From sequence record PZ793367.1: a stretch of 62,283 nucleotides of DNA. The stretch is one strand, 5' to 3'. This DNA comes from a phage. Numbering within the stretch: the stretch's first letter is position 1; each line of letters begins with the position of its first letter. Made by a program: the position numbers and the translations under genes. The notes below the pieces were generated by a model. The model ran no database searches and had not been told where the DNA came from. It worked only from the letters and a program-made list of their open reading frames with translations. Positions 14,654 to 55,359 of the stretch are shown here, piece by piece.

Positions 14654-16278
14654 TGGCTAACACTTATTTCAACTACATGGACCCGGTGGAACCGGGCGAC
14701 CGTCTGGAGTCAACAAAATACAACGGCGACTTCTCCGCGATTGCCCGTGCTTTCGACATCCTGCCGTCTCCAGATGCGCTGGCCTCCAACACCGGAAACT
14801 ATGCCCGGTCACAAGGTACATCTACGGCGTACACTGTAACCCTGCCGCGCTTCGATGGTAGCTTCGGTTACATCACTGGTATGCAGGTGTTGCTCAACAT
14901 TCACGTTAACAACACCGGGGCGGCCACGCTCAACATTAACGGACTCGGCCCTAAGCCACTCGTCAACCTGACTACCGCGCTCGGCCCACTGGTGGCTAAC
15001 GATCTGCGTGCAGGCACCATCTATTCCATCCGTTATGACGGTACCCGTTTCCAGGTAGTCAACACTGTTTCCGGTGCGGTAAACGCATCGCAGACCGCAG
15101 CTACCCAGGCAACTACCGCCGCCACAAACGCTGGTACATCCGCCACAAACGCAGCCAATAGTGCCAGCGCCGCAGCGACAAGCGCGAGTAATGCAGCCAG
15201 CAGCGCCAGCGCCGCAGCTTCCGGTGTTACTGCCGCCGCAAACTCTGCCAGCGCCGCATCGACGTCTGCAACCAATGCAGCAAACTCTGCGTCTGCGGCA
15301 AACACATCTGCGGGTAACGCTGCCAGCAGCGCCACGGCAGCATCCGGCAGCGCCACGGCAGCGGCAAACTCCGCTACGGCAGCGGCAGGTAGCGCCAGCA
15401 CGGCTAACACCCGCGCCACGGCAGCGGCAGCAAGTGCTACAGCAGCGGCAAACTCTGCGACTCAGGCAGCGGCCAGTGCTCAGACTGCGCTCGACGCTAT
15501 CGGTGACGCATCGTTCAAAGCGGCGGTGATGGGTGTCCTGTTAACCAGCACGCTGGACGTGGGGACCGTCAAGTTCTATGCGCTGAATATTGATCCGAAC
15601 ACCAAATATCCCGGTACCACCTGGGTACGCCTCCCGGTATCGCAAAGCATCCGTACATCCCTGGCCGACGCAAGTGACGTCATGACCACTGTAGGTGCCG
15701 ACTCGGTAACGCTGGCTGTAGCCAACATCCCGTCGCACAACCACACCGCTACCGTCACCATCAATAACACGGACTTGGGTACTAAGGCGTCAACCAGCTT
15801 TGACTACGGTACTAAAACGTCGAGCGCTCACAACTATGGCACGATCACGATGTCCAGTACGGACCTCGGTACCAAAACTACCAACAGCTATGATTACGGC
15901 GCTGTCACCTCGTCGTCCGCTGGTGCACATACTCACACAGTACCGGTGTACACCGCCCTCGGTACAGCCAACACAATAAAGTCAGCATCCACAGGTAGTT
16001 CAAGTTCAGGTAACGCCGCAACGTCGTCCGCTGGTGCGCATACTCACACGTTCGACCTTCCGTCGCATAACCACACGGTTGCAATCGGTAGTCACAGTCA
16101 CACGATGAACCTGGGTACTCACTCCCACACCGTAGCGGTAGGTAGCCATAGTCACAGCGTGGTCGTAGGGAGTCACACCCACACAACCACAATGACGCTG
16201 GGTAATACCGGTACTGGTCAGGCTTTCAGCATCGTGGCAAAATCTACTATCCTTGTCGGCTGGAGACGTACCGCATGA
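14653..16278 (+). CDS. tail fibre protein 1
   Basis: Ala/Ser-rich collagen-like repeats (NSASAAATSASNAASSASAAAS...), C-terminal His-x-His repeats (SHNHTVAIGSHSHTMNLGTHSHTVAVGSHSHS). Confidence 0.8.
   Translation: MANTYFNYMDPVEPGDRLESTKYNGDFSAIARAFDILPSPDALASNTGNYARSQGTSTAYTVTLPRFDGSFGYITGMQVLLNIHVNNTGAATLNINGLGPKPLVNLTTALGPLVANDLRAGTIYSIRYDGTRFQVVNTVSGAVNASQTAATQATTAATNAGTSATNAANSASAAATSASNAASSASAAASGVTAAANSASAASTSATNAANSASAANTSAGNAASSATAASGSATAAANSATAAAGSASTANTRATAAAASATAAANSATQAAASAQTALDAIGDASFKAAVMGVLLTSTLDVGTVKFYALNIDPNTKYPGTTWVRLPVSQSIRTSLADASDVMTTVGADSVTLAVANIPSHNHTATVTINNTDLGTKASTSFDYGTKTSSAHNYGTITMSSTDLGTKTTNSYDYGAVTSSSAGAHTHTVPVYTALGTANTIKSASTGSSSSGNAATSSAGAHTHTFDLPSHNHTVAIGSHSHTMNLGTHSHTVAVGSHSHSVVVGSHTHTTTMTLGNTGTGQAFSIVAKSTILVGWRRTA
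15100..15470 (+). repeat. in-frame Ala/Ser-rich coding tandem repeats within tail fibre 1
   Basis: Periodic GCx-rich units encoding AANSASAA-type repeats. Confidence 0.6.
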
Positions 16279-17891
16279 GTAACCAATATTACAACTTTAT
16301 CAATCCGGCTGAAGCGGGTACGATTGTCGACCCGTTCGACTACAACCGTGAGATGGAAAAGATCACCGAGGCTTTCTCGGTGGTCCCGCCTGCTTCCCAG
16401 TTAACTTCCGGTACCCTGAACTACTCAACGGATACGGGTACCGGGAACGATCACATCGCCACGCTGGATGACTTTGATACCGACTATGTTGCTGGGAGTA
16501 ACGTTGCACTCCGAATCAATGACGCTTCTACTGGACCGTCTACCCTGAGTGTAAACGGGCTGGCCGCTAAAGACGTCACGCTGTCAGTGTTCGGCGCGGT
16601 GGCGGCAGGTGACCTGTTTGCTGAAGGCGTCTACACGTTCGTATTCAACGGTGAGCGTTTCCAGATTCTGGAGATGGGCGCACGCTATTACACGACAGCC
16701 TTCGAACAGCTTTCGATCGCTCAGGCTAAAGCAGCACTCGCGGCGGCCAGTGAAGCTACGGCACTGAGTGAGCGTAACGCAGCAGCAGCGTCGGCGGCAA
16801 ACGCCCTCGCGTCAGCAAACGCTATTACCGCGTCCAAAAATGCAGCGGCGGGTAGCGCCACGTCAGCGGCGGGTAGCGCCACGTCAGCAGCAAACTCAGC
16901 AACGTCAGCGGCGGGTAGCGCTACGTCAGCAGCAAACTCAGCAACGGCAGCGGCAGGTAGCGCTACGGCAGCGGCGAACTCTGCGACGGCAGCGGCGAAC
17001 TCTGCTACGGCTTCCGACGCCAGCGCAACGGCGGCGGCAAACTCCGCAACGGCGGCGGCAGGTAGCGCGGCGGACGCAGCAACTTACGCGCAGGAAGCTA
17101 TCGACATCGTTAACGCGCCGAACTTTCTCGACCGCGTGCAGGCGGCTGTTCTCGAACTGGAATTGTTCGTCGGTTCCACCGAGTTCTTTGACGCTAACAT
17201 TGATCCGAACGTTAAATATCCGGGTACCACATGGGTGCGTCTACCAGCGTCCACGACTATCCGTATGTCCAACGCAACGGGCACCGACGTGCTGGCCGCA
17301 ACAGGTAGCGACAATGTAGCTTTGACTGTCAGCACCCTACCATCACATAGTCACGCTGTCACAGCGGGTACAGTCAGTTCTACAGACCTCGGTACCGACA
17401 CGCTGGCATCTGTCGACCTCGGTACCGACACGCTGGCTAATTTTACCGACACGGCCAAAACGTCATCCAGTACGGACCTCGGTACCAAAACTACCAGCAG
17501 TTATGATCCTGGTGCAATAGCAACCAACTCCACGGGTGCACACACTCACACAGTCACTCCGTATGCTGCGGAAGGAAGCAACGCGCTTATTAAATCTTCA
17601 GATTTAGGTGCCGTGAAAGCGGGCGACTACACAACATCCTCATCAGGTGCACACACGCACAGCGTCAACCTGGGTGCACACACGCACACTGTAGCGATAG
17701 GTAGTCACAACCACACGTACGCGCTGGGGTCACATACTCATACCGTGGCGCTGGGGTCACATACTCACAACGTTGCTCTCGGTAGTCACAACCACAGCAC
17801 GTCAACATCCGTGACGTCGGTTGGTTCCGGTACGGCGTTCTCCGTGGTAGAATCGTCTCTAATCTTAGTCGCATGGTACAGGAGCGCATAA
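16275..17891 (+). CDS. tail fibre protein 2 (paralogue of fibre 1)
   Basis: Shares N-terminus (YFNYMDP vs YYNFINP), Ala/Ser repeats, HxH repeats and C-terminal LILVxWYR motif with the upstream fibre. Confidence 0.8.
   Translation: MSNQYYNFINPAEAGTIVDPFDYNREMEKITEAFSVVPPASQLTSGTLNYSTDTGTGNDHIATLDDFDTDYVAGSNVALRINDASTGPSTLSVNGLAAKDVTLSVFGAVAAGDLFAEGVYTFVFNGERFQILEMGARYYTTAFEQLSIAQAKAALAAASEATALSERNAAAASAANALASANAITASKNAAAGSATSAAGSATSAANSATSAAGSATSAANSATAAAGSATAAANSATAAANSATASDASATAAANSATAAAGSAADAATYAQEAIDIVNAPNFLDRVQAAVLELELFVGSTEFFDANIDPNVKYPGTTWVRLPASTTIRMSNATGTDVLAATGSDNVALTVSTLPSHSHAVTAGTVSSTDLGTDTLASVDLGTDTLANFTDTAKTSSSTDLGTKTTSSYDPGAIATNSTGAHTHTVTPYAAEGSNALIKSSDLGAVKAGDYTTSSSGAHTHSVNLGAHTHTVAIGSHNHTYALGSHTHTVALGSHTHNVALGSHNHSTSTSVTSVGSGTAFSVVESSLILVAWYRSA
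16770..17060 (+). repeat. in-frame 21/42-bp coding tandem repeats within tail fibre 2
   Basis: gcggcgggtagcgccacgtcagc units repeated, encoding AAGSATSAANSATSAAGSATAAANSAT. Confidence 0.65.
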
Positions 17892-19009
17892 TGTCAGGAT
17901 TAACTAACCCGGCACAGTCGGATAGCACCACTACTAACCAGCCGGATCAGGTGCTCGCTACGAGCACCCCTTCGTCCACGTCCGGTGCGCTGGGTGCGAG
18001 TAATATTCAGAACGACGCGTCGCAGCAGTCGAGCGTGGCCTCGTCAATGGCACAGGCGGCACAACCGCAACAGCAGCAACAGCAGGCTGTACCCGTTGCG
18101 TCACAGCCAGCACCGCAGCAGGTGACCAATGGTGCCGTGGCAAACAACAATAACGCCAACGCCGCCAATAACTACCAGACTGTGGACCAGGCGTACAGCC
18201 AGTTGACCGCACAGAATAGCCCGATGATGCAGCAGGCAGCAGCTACGGCCCAGCGTCAGGCAGCACGTCGCGGTATGGGTAACTCGTCTATGGCTGTCGG
18301 TATGGGTCAGGCGGCCACGGATGCTGCCGCTCAAAACATGGCGTCGCAGATGGCTACCCAGTCGCAGAGTCAGGCCCAGTACAACCGCAGTCAGACGGAA
18401 GCCGAGCGCGCCCAGCAGATTAAGGAAAGTCAGACTGACCGCCAGTTGACGGAAGCCGAACGTGCCGCCCTGGTGCAAGAATCACAAGGTCAACAGCAAA
18501 TCACCAACCAGGCGTCACAGTTCGCACAGTCGCTGGAAGAACAGATTCGTTCCGGTAAGGTGAGTGAAGCGCAGGCCCAGCAGCAGATCAACAACCAGGC
18601 GTCACAGTTCAGCCAAAGCCTGGCCGAGCAAATCCGCTCCGGTAAAGTGAGCGAAGCACAGGCAGCCGAGCAGATTAAGAATCAGGCAGCGCAGTTTAAA
18701 GACTCCCTGAAGCAACAGCAGTTTGAGTTCAATGCCAACCTCGGTCTGGAGAACGCCAAGCTGAAGCAGGACGCCGCGCAGTTCGCAACGTCTATTCAGG
18801 CTAACGCCCGTGGCAGCTATACGGACTCGGTGAACAACCTGTTAAACAACAGTTCGGTGAACATCAACAATATTTCTTCCAACCCGGATTTGACCACGGA
18901 CCAGAAGAACAAGCTGATCTCGCAGGAACTGAGCAACCGTAACAATGACCTGAAGTATTTGCAGTCACTTTATGGTAACGTTACATCCTGGTCCGACAAA
19001 CTGAAATAA
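17891..19009 (+). CDS. Gln-rich virion/internal protein with about 90-bp tandem repeats
   Basis: ATG at 17891 with AGGAG RBS (TAATG overlap); repeats QQITNQASQFAQSLEEQIRSGKVSEAQA x2.5 at 18491-18718. Confidence 0.5.
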   Translation: MSGLTNPAQSDSTTTNQPDQVLATSTPSSTSGALGASNIQNDASQQSSVASSMAQAAQPQQQQQQAVPVASQPAPQQVTNGAVANNNNANAANNYQTVDQAYSQLTAQNSPMMQQAAATAQRQAARRGMGNSSMAVGMGQAATDAAAQNMASQMATQSQSQAQYNRSQTEAERAQQIKESQTDRQLTEAERAALVQESQGQQQITNQASQFAQSLEEQIRSGKVSEAQAQQQINNQASQFSQSLAEQIRSGKVSEAQAAEQIKNQAAQFKDSLKQQQFEFNANLGLENAKLKQDAAQFATSIQANARGSYTDSVNNLLNNSSVNINNISSNPDLTTDQKNKLISQELSNRNNDLKYLQSLYGNVTSWSDKLK

Positions 19010-35948: not shown

Positions 35949-37025
35949 TTATGCGTTGTAAGGGTGTCCGCCAGGTGCAGCAGGTGCAGCCGGAGGTGCC
36001 ATTGGTGCAGCAGGTGCAGCCGGAGGTGCCATCGGTGCAGCAGGTGCAGCGGCTGCCGCAGGTTGCATCTTACCGTTAGCGACCAGTGCTTCTTCGGTCC
36101 AGCCGCTGGCGATGTACTGATCGTAAGTGTAATCAGTCGCAATCATGCGGCTCTGCGGCGTCGGTGCTACAGGCGCAGCAGGAGGTACAGCAGGAGCGGC
36201 GGCAGGTGCAGGAGCAGCAGGAGGCAGACCAGCACCCGGAACAGCCGGAGCAGCGGGAGTTGCCGGAGGCATACCAGCGCCGGGTAAACCAGGCATACCA
36301 GCCGGAGGCATACCAGCGCCAGGTAAACCAGGCATACCAGGTTGCGCACCCATCGCCGGAGTAGCGCCGCCAACAGGCATTGTGCTCATACCAGTCAGTG
36401 CTGCGGCAGGTGCCTGATTCAGAATGCTGGTGTAGTCAGGACCGCTCACGATCGGCGTACCGTAACCCACACGCTGAATCATGTGGAAGTTAATGTAGAT
36501 GCCGGACTGCGGTGGCGCTGAGTCGTTGCACTTGATAGAGCACAGCACGCGAACATAGTGGCCGCATGGGAAAGTGTGAGCGCCTTTAAGCTGTTGCACT
36601 TTCTTACCGTCAGGACCAATAGTGTCGTTGTACGGAGACGGTACAGCAGACTGATCAACGTCGAACACCTGTGGCTGGAAGCCGTTCTTGAATTTGATAA
36701 CCCAGCAACCTTTCCAGCCAGGCTTAGCTACGTTCTGCGGAGCGTCGCCATCTTCCATCTTCCAGTGGAAACCTACCCACTGAGTCGCCTGATATGACGC
36801 AGCGTATTTGTGAGTAGCCGCTACCTGTTGCATCAGTGCGTACAGTTCATCAAAGCGAGTGGCCGCTGGCTGGTCTTTCGGGAAGGCCACTGCGCAGAAA
36901 TATTCCTCACGACCGTTCTTCAGTTCAACACCCTGGAAGCCAGTGGTGTTAGCGCGGAACGGGTCGCCTGATACCAGGATGCCAGTACCAGTCAGGAATT
37001 GATCAGCAGAGTTTTGAATAGCCAT
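35949..37025 (-). CDS. putative single-stranded DNA-binding protein (DUF2815-like, tentative) with Pro/Ala/Met-rich tail
   Basis: Adjacent to Cas4-like nuclease as in known phage replication modules; N-terminal FRANTTGFQGVELKNGREEYFCAVAFPKD; GGAGAAG RBS. Confidence 0.4.
   Translation of the reverse strand: MAIQNSADQFLTGTGILVSGDPFRANTTGFQGVELKNGREEYFCAVAFPKDQPAATRFDELYALMQQVAATHKYAASYQATQWVGFHWKMEDGDAPQNVAKPGWKGCWVIKFKNGFQPQVFDVDQSAVPSPYNDTIGPDGKKVQQLKGAHTFPCGHYVRVLCSIKCNDSAPPQSGIYINFHMIQRVGYGTPIVSGPDYTSILNQAPAAALTGMSTMPVGGATPAMGAQPGMPGLPGAGMPPAGMPGLPGAGMPPATPAAPAVPGAGLPPAAPAPAAAPAVPPAAPVAPTPQSRMIATDYTYDQYIASGWTEEALVANGKMQPAAAAAPAAPMAPPAAPAAPMAPPAAPAAPGGHPYNA
35974..36060. repeat. 30-bp tandem repeat (about 2.9 copies) encoding MAPPAAPAAP units
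   Basis: ggtgcagcaggtgcagccggaggtgccat(t/c) repeated head to tail. Confidence 0.65.
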
Positions 37026-53451: not shown

Positions 53452-53637
53452 TTACTTTTCACCACCCTTAGCCACAGCATCACGCGACGTCTGCGCGTTC
53501 TCGGCGCGTTGCTGCGCGTTAGGTGAATCGGACTCAGCGCGCCCGGTTTGACCGGATACGTTTGGATTGTACCCGACGTTAGCAGAGCAACCAGCCAGCA
53601 GAGTAGCCAGGATGATAGCGATGATAGATTTAGACAT
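53452..53637 (-). CDS. small lipoprotein
   Basis: MSKSIIAIILATLLAGCS lipobox; AGGAG RBS at ATG 53637. Confidence 0.5.
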   Translation of the reverse strand: MSKSIIAIILATLLAGCSANVGYNPNVSGQTGRAESDSPNAQQRAENAQTSRDAVAKGGEK

Positions 53638-53699
53638 GTTTGAAGCTCCTATTGTTTGTGATGGAAAGGAGGCCGCCACCACGTCGACCATAAAATTTG

Positions 53700-53816
53700 T
53701 TAACGCCAGAGTTCTACCGGAAGACCGAACACGAACCGGAGAACCGCCCACACTGCAACCATTGACATCACCCACAATGCCAGGGAAAAGGCAAGACCTG
53801 TGATTATGCTTTGCAT
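53700..53816 (-). CDS. tiny transmembrane peptide (38 aa), unlisted in ORF track
   Basis: MQSIITGLAFSLALWVMSMVAVWAVLRFVFGLPVELWR; AAGG RBS; TAATG overlap with upstream peptide. Confidence 0.4.
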   Translation of the reverse strand: MQSIITGLAFSLALWVMSMVAVWAVLRFVFGLPVELWR

Positions 53817-53950
53817 TACAACCGCCTTAATTGTGTGATAATGTCGTTAAAGGTGGCGTAGTCGCACGTCATAACCCACAGCGCTGACAGTATGAAAATG
53901 GCGATTGACAGTTTAAGTGCCGCGCTTGCGAATACATTAAAACCAGCCAT
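53816..53950 (-). CDS. tiny transmembrane peptide (44 aa), unlisted in ORF track
   Basis: MAGFNVFASAALKLSIAIFILSALWVMTCDYATFNDIITQLRRL; shares ALWVM core with the downstream peptide. Confidence 0.4.
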   Translation of the reverse strand: MAGFNVFASAALKLSIAIFILSALWVMTCDYATFNDIITQLRRL

Positions 53951-54296
53951 AGATCCCCCCGCAGTGTTTCATTGCGTCGTACAGGTTAGAAAATGCCATA
54001 CCTTGTGTAAGGCCGTTCATGGTGTACCATTTACCGTTACGCTCGTCCAGCTTGATAGCCCGGTTTAACGCATTGTGATAAAGGGCGTTCCCACCGTACA
54101 CGCGGACCATGTAAACTTCCCCGTTGCGTGCGGTCACTGACACGGTGATCAGATGACCTTCCTCGGTACCCACCAGGGTAGCACCGTCACAAAAGTAAAT
54201 GTTATCGCCCTGGTGCTCGCTGCGCTCCAGCGGAAAGTCTGTAATATGCGCGACGGCAGCAATGATTCTCGGTAAGTTACTCACAGGAACCCCCAC
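53937..54296 (-). CDS. hypothetical protein (GTG start, uncertain)
   Basis: 119-aa ORF beginning at GTG without clear RBS. Confidence 0.35.
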   Translation of the reverse strand: MGVPVSNLPRIIAAVAHITDFPLERSEHQGDNIYFCDGATLVGTEEGHLITVSVTARNGEVYMVRVYGGNALYHNALNRAIKLDERNGKWYTMNGLTQGMAFSNLYDAMKHCGGIYGWF

Positions 54297-54446
54297 ATTT
54301 CACAAATATATTTCACGGTTGCCGATATTGCGATCAGCGTCATGCAAGCACTTAACACAGCTACTAAATGATCTTTCACAGGAAACCCCACAACGTTAAC
54401 GAAAGATAGCCCAGCGTTACATAGAAACCGATTGTTAATGTAGTGC

Positions 54447-54725
54447 TCACTGGCTGGCCTCCTTCACCATCCGGGCAGCTTCGCGCATTATCTTAGCGCG
54501 GTTGGCTACCGTGGACTTGATACCGTGCTGAGCTAACAGGCGGCGCGTCGTGGTAAACTGGTGCGGCGGGAAGATAGCCGCAAAAAAGTTGTCGTCGTAA
54601 CGCTCCAGTCGGTCGAGGTCCACCAGGTCAGCTACTGCGTGACGCATAGCCTTTGATACAAAGATTGACCAGTCGGTACCCTCCGGTGCCTTGCGTGCTA
54701 AGGTATTCATGACACCATCTCCCAT
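54447..54725 (-). CDS. hypothetical protein
   Basis: 92-aa ORF. Confidence 0.4.
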   Translation of the reverse strand: MGDGVMNTLARKAPEGTDWSIFVSKAMRHAVADLVDLDRLERYDDNFFAAIFPPHQFTTTRRLLAQHGIKSTVANRAKIMREAARMVKEASQ

Positions 54726-54967
54726 GCGTGATGAACAATCTTACCCATTGCCTCATCAAAGCTATTGCATTGCACACTATCGAGATTGCGGAACCGTACC
54801 AGGTTATCGCGGTAAGCAACAGCCATCAGGTGAGCGCCATAATACAATTCGATCTCAATAGAGTGACCTTTGTTAGCCTTTATCACCCAGCCGAGCGGCA
54901 ACACGTTAGCGCGCCCGGTGTTTTCTGCATAGGCCAGCGCTTCGGCTGGCGTTGGGTATTTGTTCAT
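54707..54967 (-). CDS. small protein of the xPxGW family
   Basis: NVLPLGWVIKANKGHSIEIELYYG ... FDEAMGKI. Confidence 0.5.
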   Translation of the reverse strand: MNKYPTPAEALAYAENTGRANVLPLGWVIKANKGHSIEIELYYGAHLMAVAYRDNLVRFRNLDSVQCNSFDEAMGKIVHHAWEMVS

Positions 54968-54969
54968 GA

Positions 54970-55287
54970 TTAAAATCTCACGTTGGTGATAACGATTACC
55001 GGTTTATGACCCATGTTGTAGGTATCACCGAACAACAGCGGACCCATAGTGAAGTCACCGCGTGAAAGGTTACGTGCTGACACCGTGTATACCAGACCGT
55101 TATGCAGTACGGTATCACCCGGCTTGATTGCGCTAATGTGCTTGCCGACTAACTGCGCGTCTTTGTAAACGCGGATGTTATATTCAGGCGCTACCGTCTT
55201 TTTCAGGGAAGCGATCACCGCCTCGCTATCCAGCATGTTGATATTTTCTGCCGCCATCAGTGCCGCAATATTTTCTAATGCTTGCAT
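54970..55287 (-). CDS. hypothetical protein
   Basis: 105-aa ORF. Confidence 0.5.
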   Translation of the reverse strand: MQALENIAALMAAENINMLDSEAVIASLKKTVAPEYNIRVYKDAQLVGKHISAIKPGDTVLHNGLVYTVSARNLSRGDFTMGPLLFGDTYNMGHKPVIVITNVRF

Positions 55288-55359
55288 TTGCTTATCTCCT
55301 GTTACGGGGTGTTAGTGGTTTTATTGGGGCACCTCGCAAGATGCCCTGTAAATCCGCTA

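Follow-up and report, generated by a model that had tools for sequence, protein, structure and literature searches.

Translational coupling through 4-nt overlaps of a stop and a start codon (ATGA or GTGA) is known from trpE-trpD and trpB-trpA of E. coli and from many phage operons. Phages also encode micro-proteins of less than 50 aa, which were found by ribosome profiling of lambda and by comparative genomics of phage metagenomes. Deletions and insertions between short direct repeats, i.e. events of illegitimate or short-homology recombination, are classic in T7 and T4, and the programmed +1 site of prfB, the gene of RF2, reads AGG GGG UAU CUU UGA. The locus described here, a pair of 17-bp direct repeats in a phage genome, is similar to each of these systems in some respects and differs from each in others.

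The window, i.e. the whole stretch of 62,283 bp that was analysed, represents a Xuquatrovirus genome. Over positions 53500-55300 it shares 96.7% identity with Escherichia phage PTXU04 and 87.7% with phage Pondi, and HelliStehle/Bas95 matches part of the same stretch. The Xuquatrovirus relatives are podoviruses of E. coli with genomes of about 60 kb, the biology of which is little understood. The minus strand carries every gene of this part of the genome, and 4-nt stop/start overlaps join most neighbouring genes of the cluster.

With a probability of about 80%, the 17-mer is at once a protein-coding sequence and a translation-restart junction, which is doubled because two tiny genes, sORF1 and sORF2, are placed in tandem between the homologues of PTXU04 gp74 and gp73. 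The features concerned are the following.

53937..54284, minus strand: gp73 homologue (PTXU04_00073), 115 aa, with the predicted GTG start at 54284..54282
54281..54297, minus strand: repeat copy at the end of sORF2, plus-strand letters TCACAGGAACCCCCACA
54281..54375, minus strand: presence/absence segment of 95 bp, made up of the 78-nt sORF2 interior and one 17-mer
54281..54379, minus strand: sORF2, 32 aa, unannotated, hydrophobic peptide (M)KDHLVAVLSACMTLIAISATVKYICEMWGFL
54376..54392, minus strand: repeat copy at the end of sORF1, plus-strand letters TCACAGGAAACCCCACA
54376..54450, minus strand: sORF1, 24 aa, unannotated, hydrophobic peptide (M)STTLTIGFYVTLGYLSLTLWGFL
54447..54710, minus strand: gp74 homologue (PTXU04_00074), 87 aa, first cistron of the GTGA chain
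54458..54464, minus strand: Shine-Dalgarno (SD) sequence AAGGAGG of sORF1, 7 nt 5' of its GTG and within the last codons of the gp74 homologue

The repeat pair and the cistron chain

Both the letters and the coordinates of the repeat pair in the original prediction (54281-54297 and 54376-54392, 95 bp start-to-start) proved correct, and the two 17-mers are identical at 16 out of 17 bases. In 100 dinucleotide-preserving shuffles of the window, searched for pairs of 17-mers with at most one mismatch and 17-200 bp apart, five shuffles contained such a pair, which gives a chance expectation of 0.05 pairs per shuffled window. The pair is therefore more than chance. The real window holds 25 other near-exact 17-mer pairs, the majority of them in repetitive coding sequence around 15-18 kb, and the spacing of every one of these is a multiple of three. 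The 95-bp pair is the sole near-exact 17-mer pair in the window with a spacing that is not a multiple of 3; its spacing equals 33 codons of three nucleotides minus a 4-nt overlap. The pair was also inherited in PTXU04 and in the metagenomic contig L022. A search for further copies throughout the 62,283-bp window, as suggested with the original prediction, gave no third 17-mer when up to three mismatches were allowed.

The repeat had earlier been read on the non-coding strand, while the genes are situated on the minus strand. Read on the minus strand, the copy at 54376..54392 is TG TGG GGT TTC CTG TGA, i.e. (L)WGFL-stop, and the copy at 54281..54297 is TG TGG GGG TTC CTG TGA, i.e. (M)WGFL-stop. 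Each 17-mer comprises the last five codons of a micro-ORF with its stop, plus the start codon of the next cistron, and the copies differ only in the wobble base of their Gly codon (GGT vs GGG). sORF1 ends in the same 17-mer in every relative having sORF1, and the positions that vary inside the 17-mer among relatives are synonymous third-codon positions only, namely GGT/GGG and TTC/TTT.

The two micro-ORFs are part of a chain of four cistrons, in which the gp74 homologue (87 aa) is followed by sORF1 (24 aa), sORF2 (32 aa) and the gp73 homologue (115 aa). Three GTGA overlaps on the minus strand, at 54450-54447, 54379-54376 and 54284-54281, join these cistrons: the GTG of sORF1 overlaps the TGA of the gp74 homologue, the GTG of sORF2 (54379..54377) overlaps the TGA of sORF1, and the stop of sORF2 overlaps the start of the 115-aa gene. 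In each overlap the final base of the GTG doubles as the G of the TGA. From the first junction through sORF1 the minus-strand letters are AAGGAGGCCAGCCA GTG AGC ... TTG TGG GGT TTC CTG TGA; those of sORF2 are GTG AAA GAT ... ATG TGG GGG TTC CTG TGA, and the gp73 homologue begins with GTG AGT AAC TTA CCG. The longest ORF of the gp74 homologue reaches 54725; the homologue itself is joined to the next gene upstream by an ATGA overlap of its ATG with that gene's stop. Across all relatives the stop/start overlap is retained as GTGA or ATGA, the ATGA form being found in L009 and L010.

Two nearly identical direct copies next to a gene start could point to an operator, in which the copies are DNA or RNA binding sites of a regulator controlling the downstream gene, and a regulator binding site had indeed been proposed in the original prediction. 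A few genes downstream, the homologue of PTXU04_00070 is a DNA-binding-domain protein according to a published re-annotation, with HTH Pfam hints in relatives, the phage encodes a CsrA homologue (gp28), and the plus strand of the repeat has a GGA motif. Such an operator is nevertheless very unlikely given where the repeat lies and how it varies. It is located wholly within minus-strand coding sequence, with no promoter-like site on that strand within about 1 kb; its variation is confined to wobble positions that are synonymous in the sORF frame; and the window contains just the two copies, even at three mismatches. In relatives the copy number is 0, 1 or 2 though the flanking genes are conserved. 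Absence of the repeat from relatives had been named in advance as an argument against a binding site, and this is largely what was found, since a single copy is the rule among relatives and four lineages lack it. A CsrA site was rejected, as the GGA motif is absent from the mRNA-sense strand and present on the antisense strand alone, which encodes no gene here.

Start sites and proposed translational restart

The gene at 53937-54296 of the original prediction exists as a minus-strand ORF initiated by GTG. It is, however, merely the longest ORF, and comparison with relatives places the start of the gp73 homologue at the GTG at 54284 and not at 54296: the PTXU04 annotation (348 nt) places the start at the position homologous to GTG 54284, six relatives (L008, L009, L010, L019, L025 and L026) have an ATG at exactly the homologous position, and all 20 aligned gp73 homologues start with M-[S/N]-N-L. 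The statement that the first repeat copy overlaps the GTG of this gene holds in so far as the GTG at 54284-54282 is inside the copy, with the start at 54284 in place of 54296.

Anti-SD duplex energies were compared with the background of the window, which has a median of -2.9 and a 1st percentile of -9.6 kcal/mol. The remark in the original prediction that the gene has no ribosome binding site is valid for 54296 (-2.1 kcal/mol) and is due to the choice of the wrong start; the start at 54284 has an SD-like GGGGGU 5 nt upstream with a duplex energy of -9.6 kcal/mol, equal to the 1st percentile of the background. For sORF1, the AAGGAGG duplex reaches -11.7 kcal/mol, beyond the 1st percentile, and this motif is kept in the relatives having sORF1. 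The value for sORF2 is moderate (-5.9 kcal/mol). The idea that the repeat might be part of an initiation signal was thus essentially right, in that each copy holds an SD-like G-run, a 5-nt spacer and GTG; the signal is not an unusual one, being a standard GTGA overlap.

No sigma-70-like promoter was identified on the coding strand nearby (about 1 kb), and no terminator-like site on the minus strand at the locus. The RNA has a minimum free energy of -48.4 kcal/mol against a shuffle mean of -57.1 kcal/mol (z=+1.9), so that it folds worse than its shuffles. A structured RNA or attenuator leader was rejected on the basis of this z value and the lack of a minus-strand terminator.

Under the preferred reading, the nucleotides that encode the end of a micro-ORF would also serve the next cistron, by providing the SD-like G-run GGGG[G]U, a 5-nt spacer and the GUG start. 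Ribosomes would load at the strong AAGGAGG before sORF1, or come from gp74, terminate at each UGA and then re-initiate at the overlapping GUG with assistance of the G-run. The expression of the two putative single-helix membrane peptides and of gp73 would thereby be coupled, and the second copy of the 17-mer would stem from the 95-bp sORF2 segment, which is present in this lineage and missing from most relatives. Re-initiation is the probable route of expression.

Programmed recoding, by which a frameshift would fuse sORF1 to sORF2 or a sORF to gp73, was considered for the same nucleotides. The GGT variant reads G_GGU_UUC in frame, formally a -1 slippery heptamer two codons before the UGA; the -1 frame is also the frame of the next cistron, and the layout resembles the +1 site of prfB. 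In the window and L022 it is copy 1 that carries GGT, in PTXU04 it is copy 2, and L010, L029 and L030 have it in their only copy. In most relatives, however, GGG breaks the X_XXY_YYZ pattern, and GGT/GGG behaves as a neutral synonymous polymorphism. A downstream stimulatory structure is lacking (z=+1.9), and in a prfB-like +1 shift the P-site CUG followed by U cannot re-pair, while the +1 frame misses the next gene. Recoding is therefore extremely improbable at this locus.

Coding evidence and the 95-bp segment

The relatives were gathered via the neighbouring 115-aa protein, which makes their sampling independent of the sORFs. Thirteen distinct DNA versions of sORF1, from isolates and ENA/Logan assemblies, encode three protein versions, all of 24 aa. 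Variable sites are concentrated at codon position 3, both overall (19 out of 29, p=4e-4) and in the main clade (13 out of 15, p=3e-5). The most divergent sORF1 (L009/L010), MSTLITLSFYATIGYFSLTLWGLI, differs by conservative replacements alone, and its overlap is kept as ATGA. sORF1 is taken to be a real gene on which purifying selection acts. When it was searched for outside the group, phage records gave only PTXU04, Pondi and Bas95, no additions came from IMG/VR, and GTDB genomes contained none.

For sORF2, the frame is open in all three known copies, i.e. the window, PTXU04 (L001) and the metagenomic contig L022. The three sequences differ at seven variable sites, comprising three synonymous changes and four conservative replacements, which are too few for a selection test. 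Searches for homologues by tblastn and blastn of phage records gave PTXU04 alone, as did a degenerate DNA pattern in IMG/VR; neither E. coli genomes nor, by phmmer, 1.84 billion protein representatives contained a match. sORF2 may be translated and functional. As these searches gave no homologue beyond the known copies, it could also be a spacer that is translated but serves no function.

The hydrophobicity of either peptide would suffice for one membrane helix, and membrane insertion is predicted for each. sORF1 has a GRAVY of 1.22 and a best 19-residue hydropathy window of 1.35; for sORF2 the GRAVY is about 1.2 and the best 19-aa window 2.0. Neither sORF1 and sORF2 nor the gp74 and gp73 homologues matched a Pfam or PHROGs family. 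The AlphaFold2 model of gp73 (pLDDT 91.9) consists of a helix, a meander beta-sheet and C-terminal helices, and showed no significant match in PDB or BFVD except the protein itself.

The locus as a whole carries a run of tiny membrane proteins and lipoproteins, namely sORF1, sORF2, a 44-aa ORF, the 38-aa gp72 and the 61-aa lipoprotein gp71. Runs of this kind would be characteristic of accessory early genes whose products target the host envelope.

The opposite possibility is that there are no genes in the 160 nt between gp74 and gp73, the repeat being the neutral remnant of a small duplication in non-coding sequence. The records of PTXU04, Pondi and Bas95 annotate neither ORF and leave a gap where sORF1 falls; both ORFs lack a family match, and sORF2 is without a statistical sign of selection. 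Common gene callers set their lower limit of gene length at about 90 nt. Missing annotation is thus to be expected, because sORF1 (75 nt) is below this minimum and sORF2 (99 nt) close to it. Against a non-coding interval stand the codon-position bias of sORF1 and its constant length over 13 DNA versions, its strong SD sequence at the right spacing, and the exact stop/start overlaps at every junction in every relative. Taken with these observations, the absence of genes is improbable.

Three states of the junction were found among the relatives.

State 0, no sORF and no 17-mer, gp74 overlapping gp73 directly: L008, L025, L019-21, L026
State 1, a single sORF and a single 17-mer directly before gp73: Pondi, Bas95, L005-7, L009-18, L027-30
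State 2, two sORFs and two 17-mers: the window, PTXU04, L022

States 1 and 2 differ by a precise segment of 95 bp, and one 17-mer remains where it is absent; because of the repeat, the boundaries of the segment can equally be placed at 54298-54392. In L022 the gp74/sORF1/sORF2 part is 94-98% identical to the window, whereas identity drops to 54% for the gp73 protein. The upstream part of L029 and L030 is near-identical, and sORF2 is missing from both. From these identity patterns the junction is therefore also a mosaic boundary.

Recombination at the junction may have brought in the sORF2 segment, or deletion between the 17-mers may be removing it. Parsimony favours a gain, given how widespread and diverse the genomes with one sORF are, though this polarity is to be read as a tentative one. 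Simple tandem duplication was rejected as the origin of sORF2. Its 78-nt interior is unlike the upstream 78 nt in global alignment and unlike the sORF1 interior in local alignment, and it likewise resembles neither the sORF1 peptide, the 5' end of gp73, the rest of the window nor the fetched loci.

A sequence of 16 out of 17 identical nucleotides with sharp edges, common to two unrelated peptides, requires more than coding alone. The shared 17-mer needs either recombination or duplication at the junction, or a constraint at the nucleotide level from the restart signal. One tentative possibility is an insertion scar, left when a foreign micro-gene of 78 bp arrived at the sORF1/gp73 junction with a 17-bp target duplication or by short-homology recombination. 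The repeat would then tell more about the route of arrival than about function, and that the junction acts as a recombination hotspot or 'linker' between modules is an equally tentative part of this proposal. It is in agreement with the precise 95-bp indel that leaves one copy in relatives, with the sharp similarity edges around an interior unlike anything else in the window, with the mosaic breakpoint of L022 at the junction, and with L029 and L030, near-identical upstream yet without sORF2. Deletion between the repeats accounts for the same pattern, however, and 17 bp is long for a target-site duplication. Terminal inverted repeats, a transposase or a homing endonuclease are lacking in the insert, and no donor was detected in phage records, IMG/VR, JGI metagenomes, E. 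coli genomes or the 1.84 billion protein representatives. Such a scar is moreover compatible with the doubled coding and restart junction and not exclusive of it.

The target-site duplication of a mobile element was rejected: there are no inverted repeats and no mobility gene, the 78-nt insert encodes nothing but the 32-aa peptide, and no other copy was present in the window, the fetched loci, phage records or E. coli. In JGI metagenomes, a search for other junction-flanked inserts (TGTGGGGNTTYCTGTGA-N57-87-same) returned a single match, L024, which is an unrelated 12-nt tandem repeat.

It is rather doubtful, but conceivable, that the 'WGFL-stop/GUG' junction is a portable coupling cassette that unites stop, SD and start in one unit. 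If so, any short sequence recombined between two copies would be expressed at once as a new cistron, sORF2 would be a recently born or captured micro-gene, and the junction would be a hotspot of module exchange in the early regions of Xuquatrovirus, for which the mosaic breakpoint of L022 is suggestive.

Meaning and comparison with known systems

For annotation, the analysis adds two putative tiny membrane-peptide genes that are absent from every deposited Xuquatrovirus record, or three with the neighbouring 44-aa ORF. In a genome-wide CRISPRi-ART screen of PTXU04, gp74 was scored 'Semi-Fit' and gp73 'Not Fit', and a guide over the sORF2/gp73 junction caused no fitness defect (PMC11879866 supplement). 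The latter result is compatible with an accessory function but gives no positive support to the preferred reading. Since the micro-ORFs are unannotated, they were not targeted as such in this screen, and the guides at the gp73 and gp74 starts sit on or beside these cistrons, which are probably coupled. A polar effect on the micro-peptides could thus account for part of the 'Semi-Fit' phenotype of gp74. In general, the locus can serve as an example of a short repeat that seems regulatory when read on one strand, and for which the other strand offers a probable explanation in coding and restart constraints.

Like the coupled cistrons of the trp type, the chain combines stop/start overlap with an SD-like sequence in the last codons of the upstream ORF and has no intervening promoter or terminator. 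It differs by having three GTGA junctions in 170 nt, two of them made from the same 17 nt, and by upstream cistrons of only 24 and 32 codons; the coupling here is predicted from sequence.

sORF1 and sORF2 are similar to other phage micro-proteins in size, in being unannotated, in having one predicted membrane helix, and in their location in an early/accessory cluster of one phage group. The C-terminal WGFL-stop common to two unrelated peptides sets them apart and is peculiar to this locus.

As with the indels at repeats in T7 and T4, a precise polymorphism, here of 95 bp, is bounded by a direct repeat, here of 17 bp, of which one copy is left. Unlike in those phages, the repeat is probably a coding and restart sequence and not random microhomology.

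The resemblance to prfB is found in UGG GGG UUC CUG UGA, which has an SD-like G-run, a 3-nt spacer, a Leu codon and UGA; here, in difference to prfB, the G-run is placed for the overlapping GUG start. The mechanism would thus be an ordinary one, translational coupling via overlapping stop and start codons, and it is the predicted pair of small genes that is new.

Micro membrane proteins and a lipoprotein downstream of the 115-aa gene

Analysis of the region behind the 115-aa gene (the gp73 homologue) revealed a third unannotated hydrophobic small ORF, in addition to sORF1 and sORF2, the two micro-ORFs located between the gp74 and gp73 homologues. Two further tiny envelope proteins of 38 and 61 aa (window 53452-53816, minus strand) are encoded downstream of the sORFs and this 44-aa ORF.

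53816-53950 (-), 44-aa hydrophobic small ORF, unannotated; peptide MAGFNVFASAALKLSIAIFILSALWVMTCDYATFNDIITQLRRL
53816..53700 (-), 38-aa membrane peptide, homologue of PTXU04_00072, kept in many relatives
53637..53452 (-), 61-aa lipoprotein, homologue of PTXU04_00071; lipobox MSKSIIAIILATLLAGC

From its ATG on, the 44-aa ORF shares 14 nt with the 3' end of the 115-aa gene, and it is served by the Shine-Dalgarno sequence GGGGGGAT (-9.4 kcal/mol). Its stop codon and the start codon of the gp72 homologue run into each other as TAATG. An identical ORF is present in an unannotated gap of phage PTXU04, and it is also conserved in the relatives' loci L011 and L022. In three other relatives (L005, L015 and L026) a divergent 52-aa version is called, again with the 14-nt overlap. 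For the 61-aa lipoprotein, LPAM_1 and Cor/Rz-like PHROGs came up as weak matches. Together, the two sORFs, the 44-aa ORF, the 38-aa peptide and the 61-aa lipoprotein form a run of five micro membrane/lipoproteins.

The 115-aa protein family and mosaicism at its border

In the 115-aa family (53937-54284, minus strand) both termini are invariant, the N-terminus reading MxNLxRFIAAVAHITDFP and the C-terminus NLYDAMxHCGGxxGW. The fold is predicted with confidence (pLDDT 91.9), and a search of the model against PDB and BFVD returned no significant structure match except the PTXU04 protein itself.

A mosaic breakpoint was observed at the sORF/gp73 junction when the metagenomic contig L022 (1334-1848) was compared with the window (53937-54450). 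Nucleotide identity is 94-98% across gp74, sORF1 and sORF2, whereas the adjacent 115-aa protein of L022 (P0020) is only 54% identical. L005 represents the opposite case, with a 93% identical 115-aa protein, yet one sORF only.

Direct repeats

The sole difference between the two 17-mer copies is G/T, giving glycine codon GGT or GGG (window 54376-54392 and 54281-54297; PTXU04 locus L001, 2285-2396). The placement of GGT and GGG in PTXU04 is reversed relative to the window and L022, which could reflect gene conversion between the copies or independent synonymous changes. Formally, a -1 slippery heptamer, G_GGU_UUC, arises with the GGT form.

Elsewhere in the window, 25 near-exact 17-mer direct-repeat pairs were found, every spacing being a multiple of 3 (21, 42, 63, 84, 105 and so on). 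These presumably belong to repetitive coding sequence of a large protein.

15160-18500, also 24003, 35973-36261 and 38449, near-exact 17-mer repeat pairs, most at 15-18 kb

Comparison with the CRISPRi-ART screen of PTXU04

PTXU04 54544-54574 (window about 54269-54299), CRISPRi-ART site
PTXU04 54974-55004 (window about 54699-54729), CRISPRi-ART site

The CRISPRi-ART entry listed for gp73 spans the second copy of the repeat as well as the end of sORF2. The knockdown study leaves polarity on the unannotated sORFs out of account. Its supplement scores gp73 as Not Fit and gp74, which opens the chain of cistrons, as Semi-Fit (PMC11879866).
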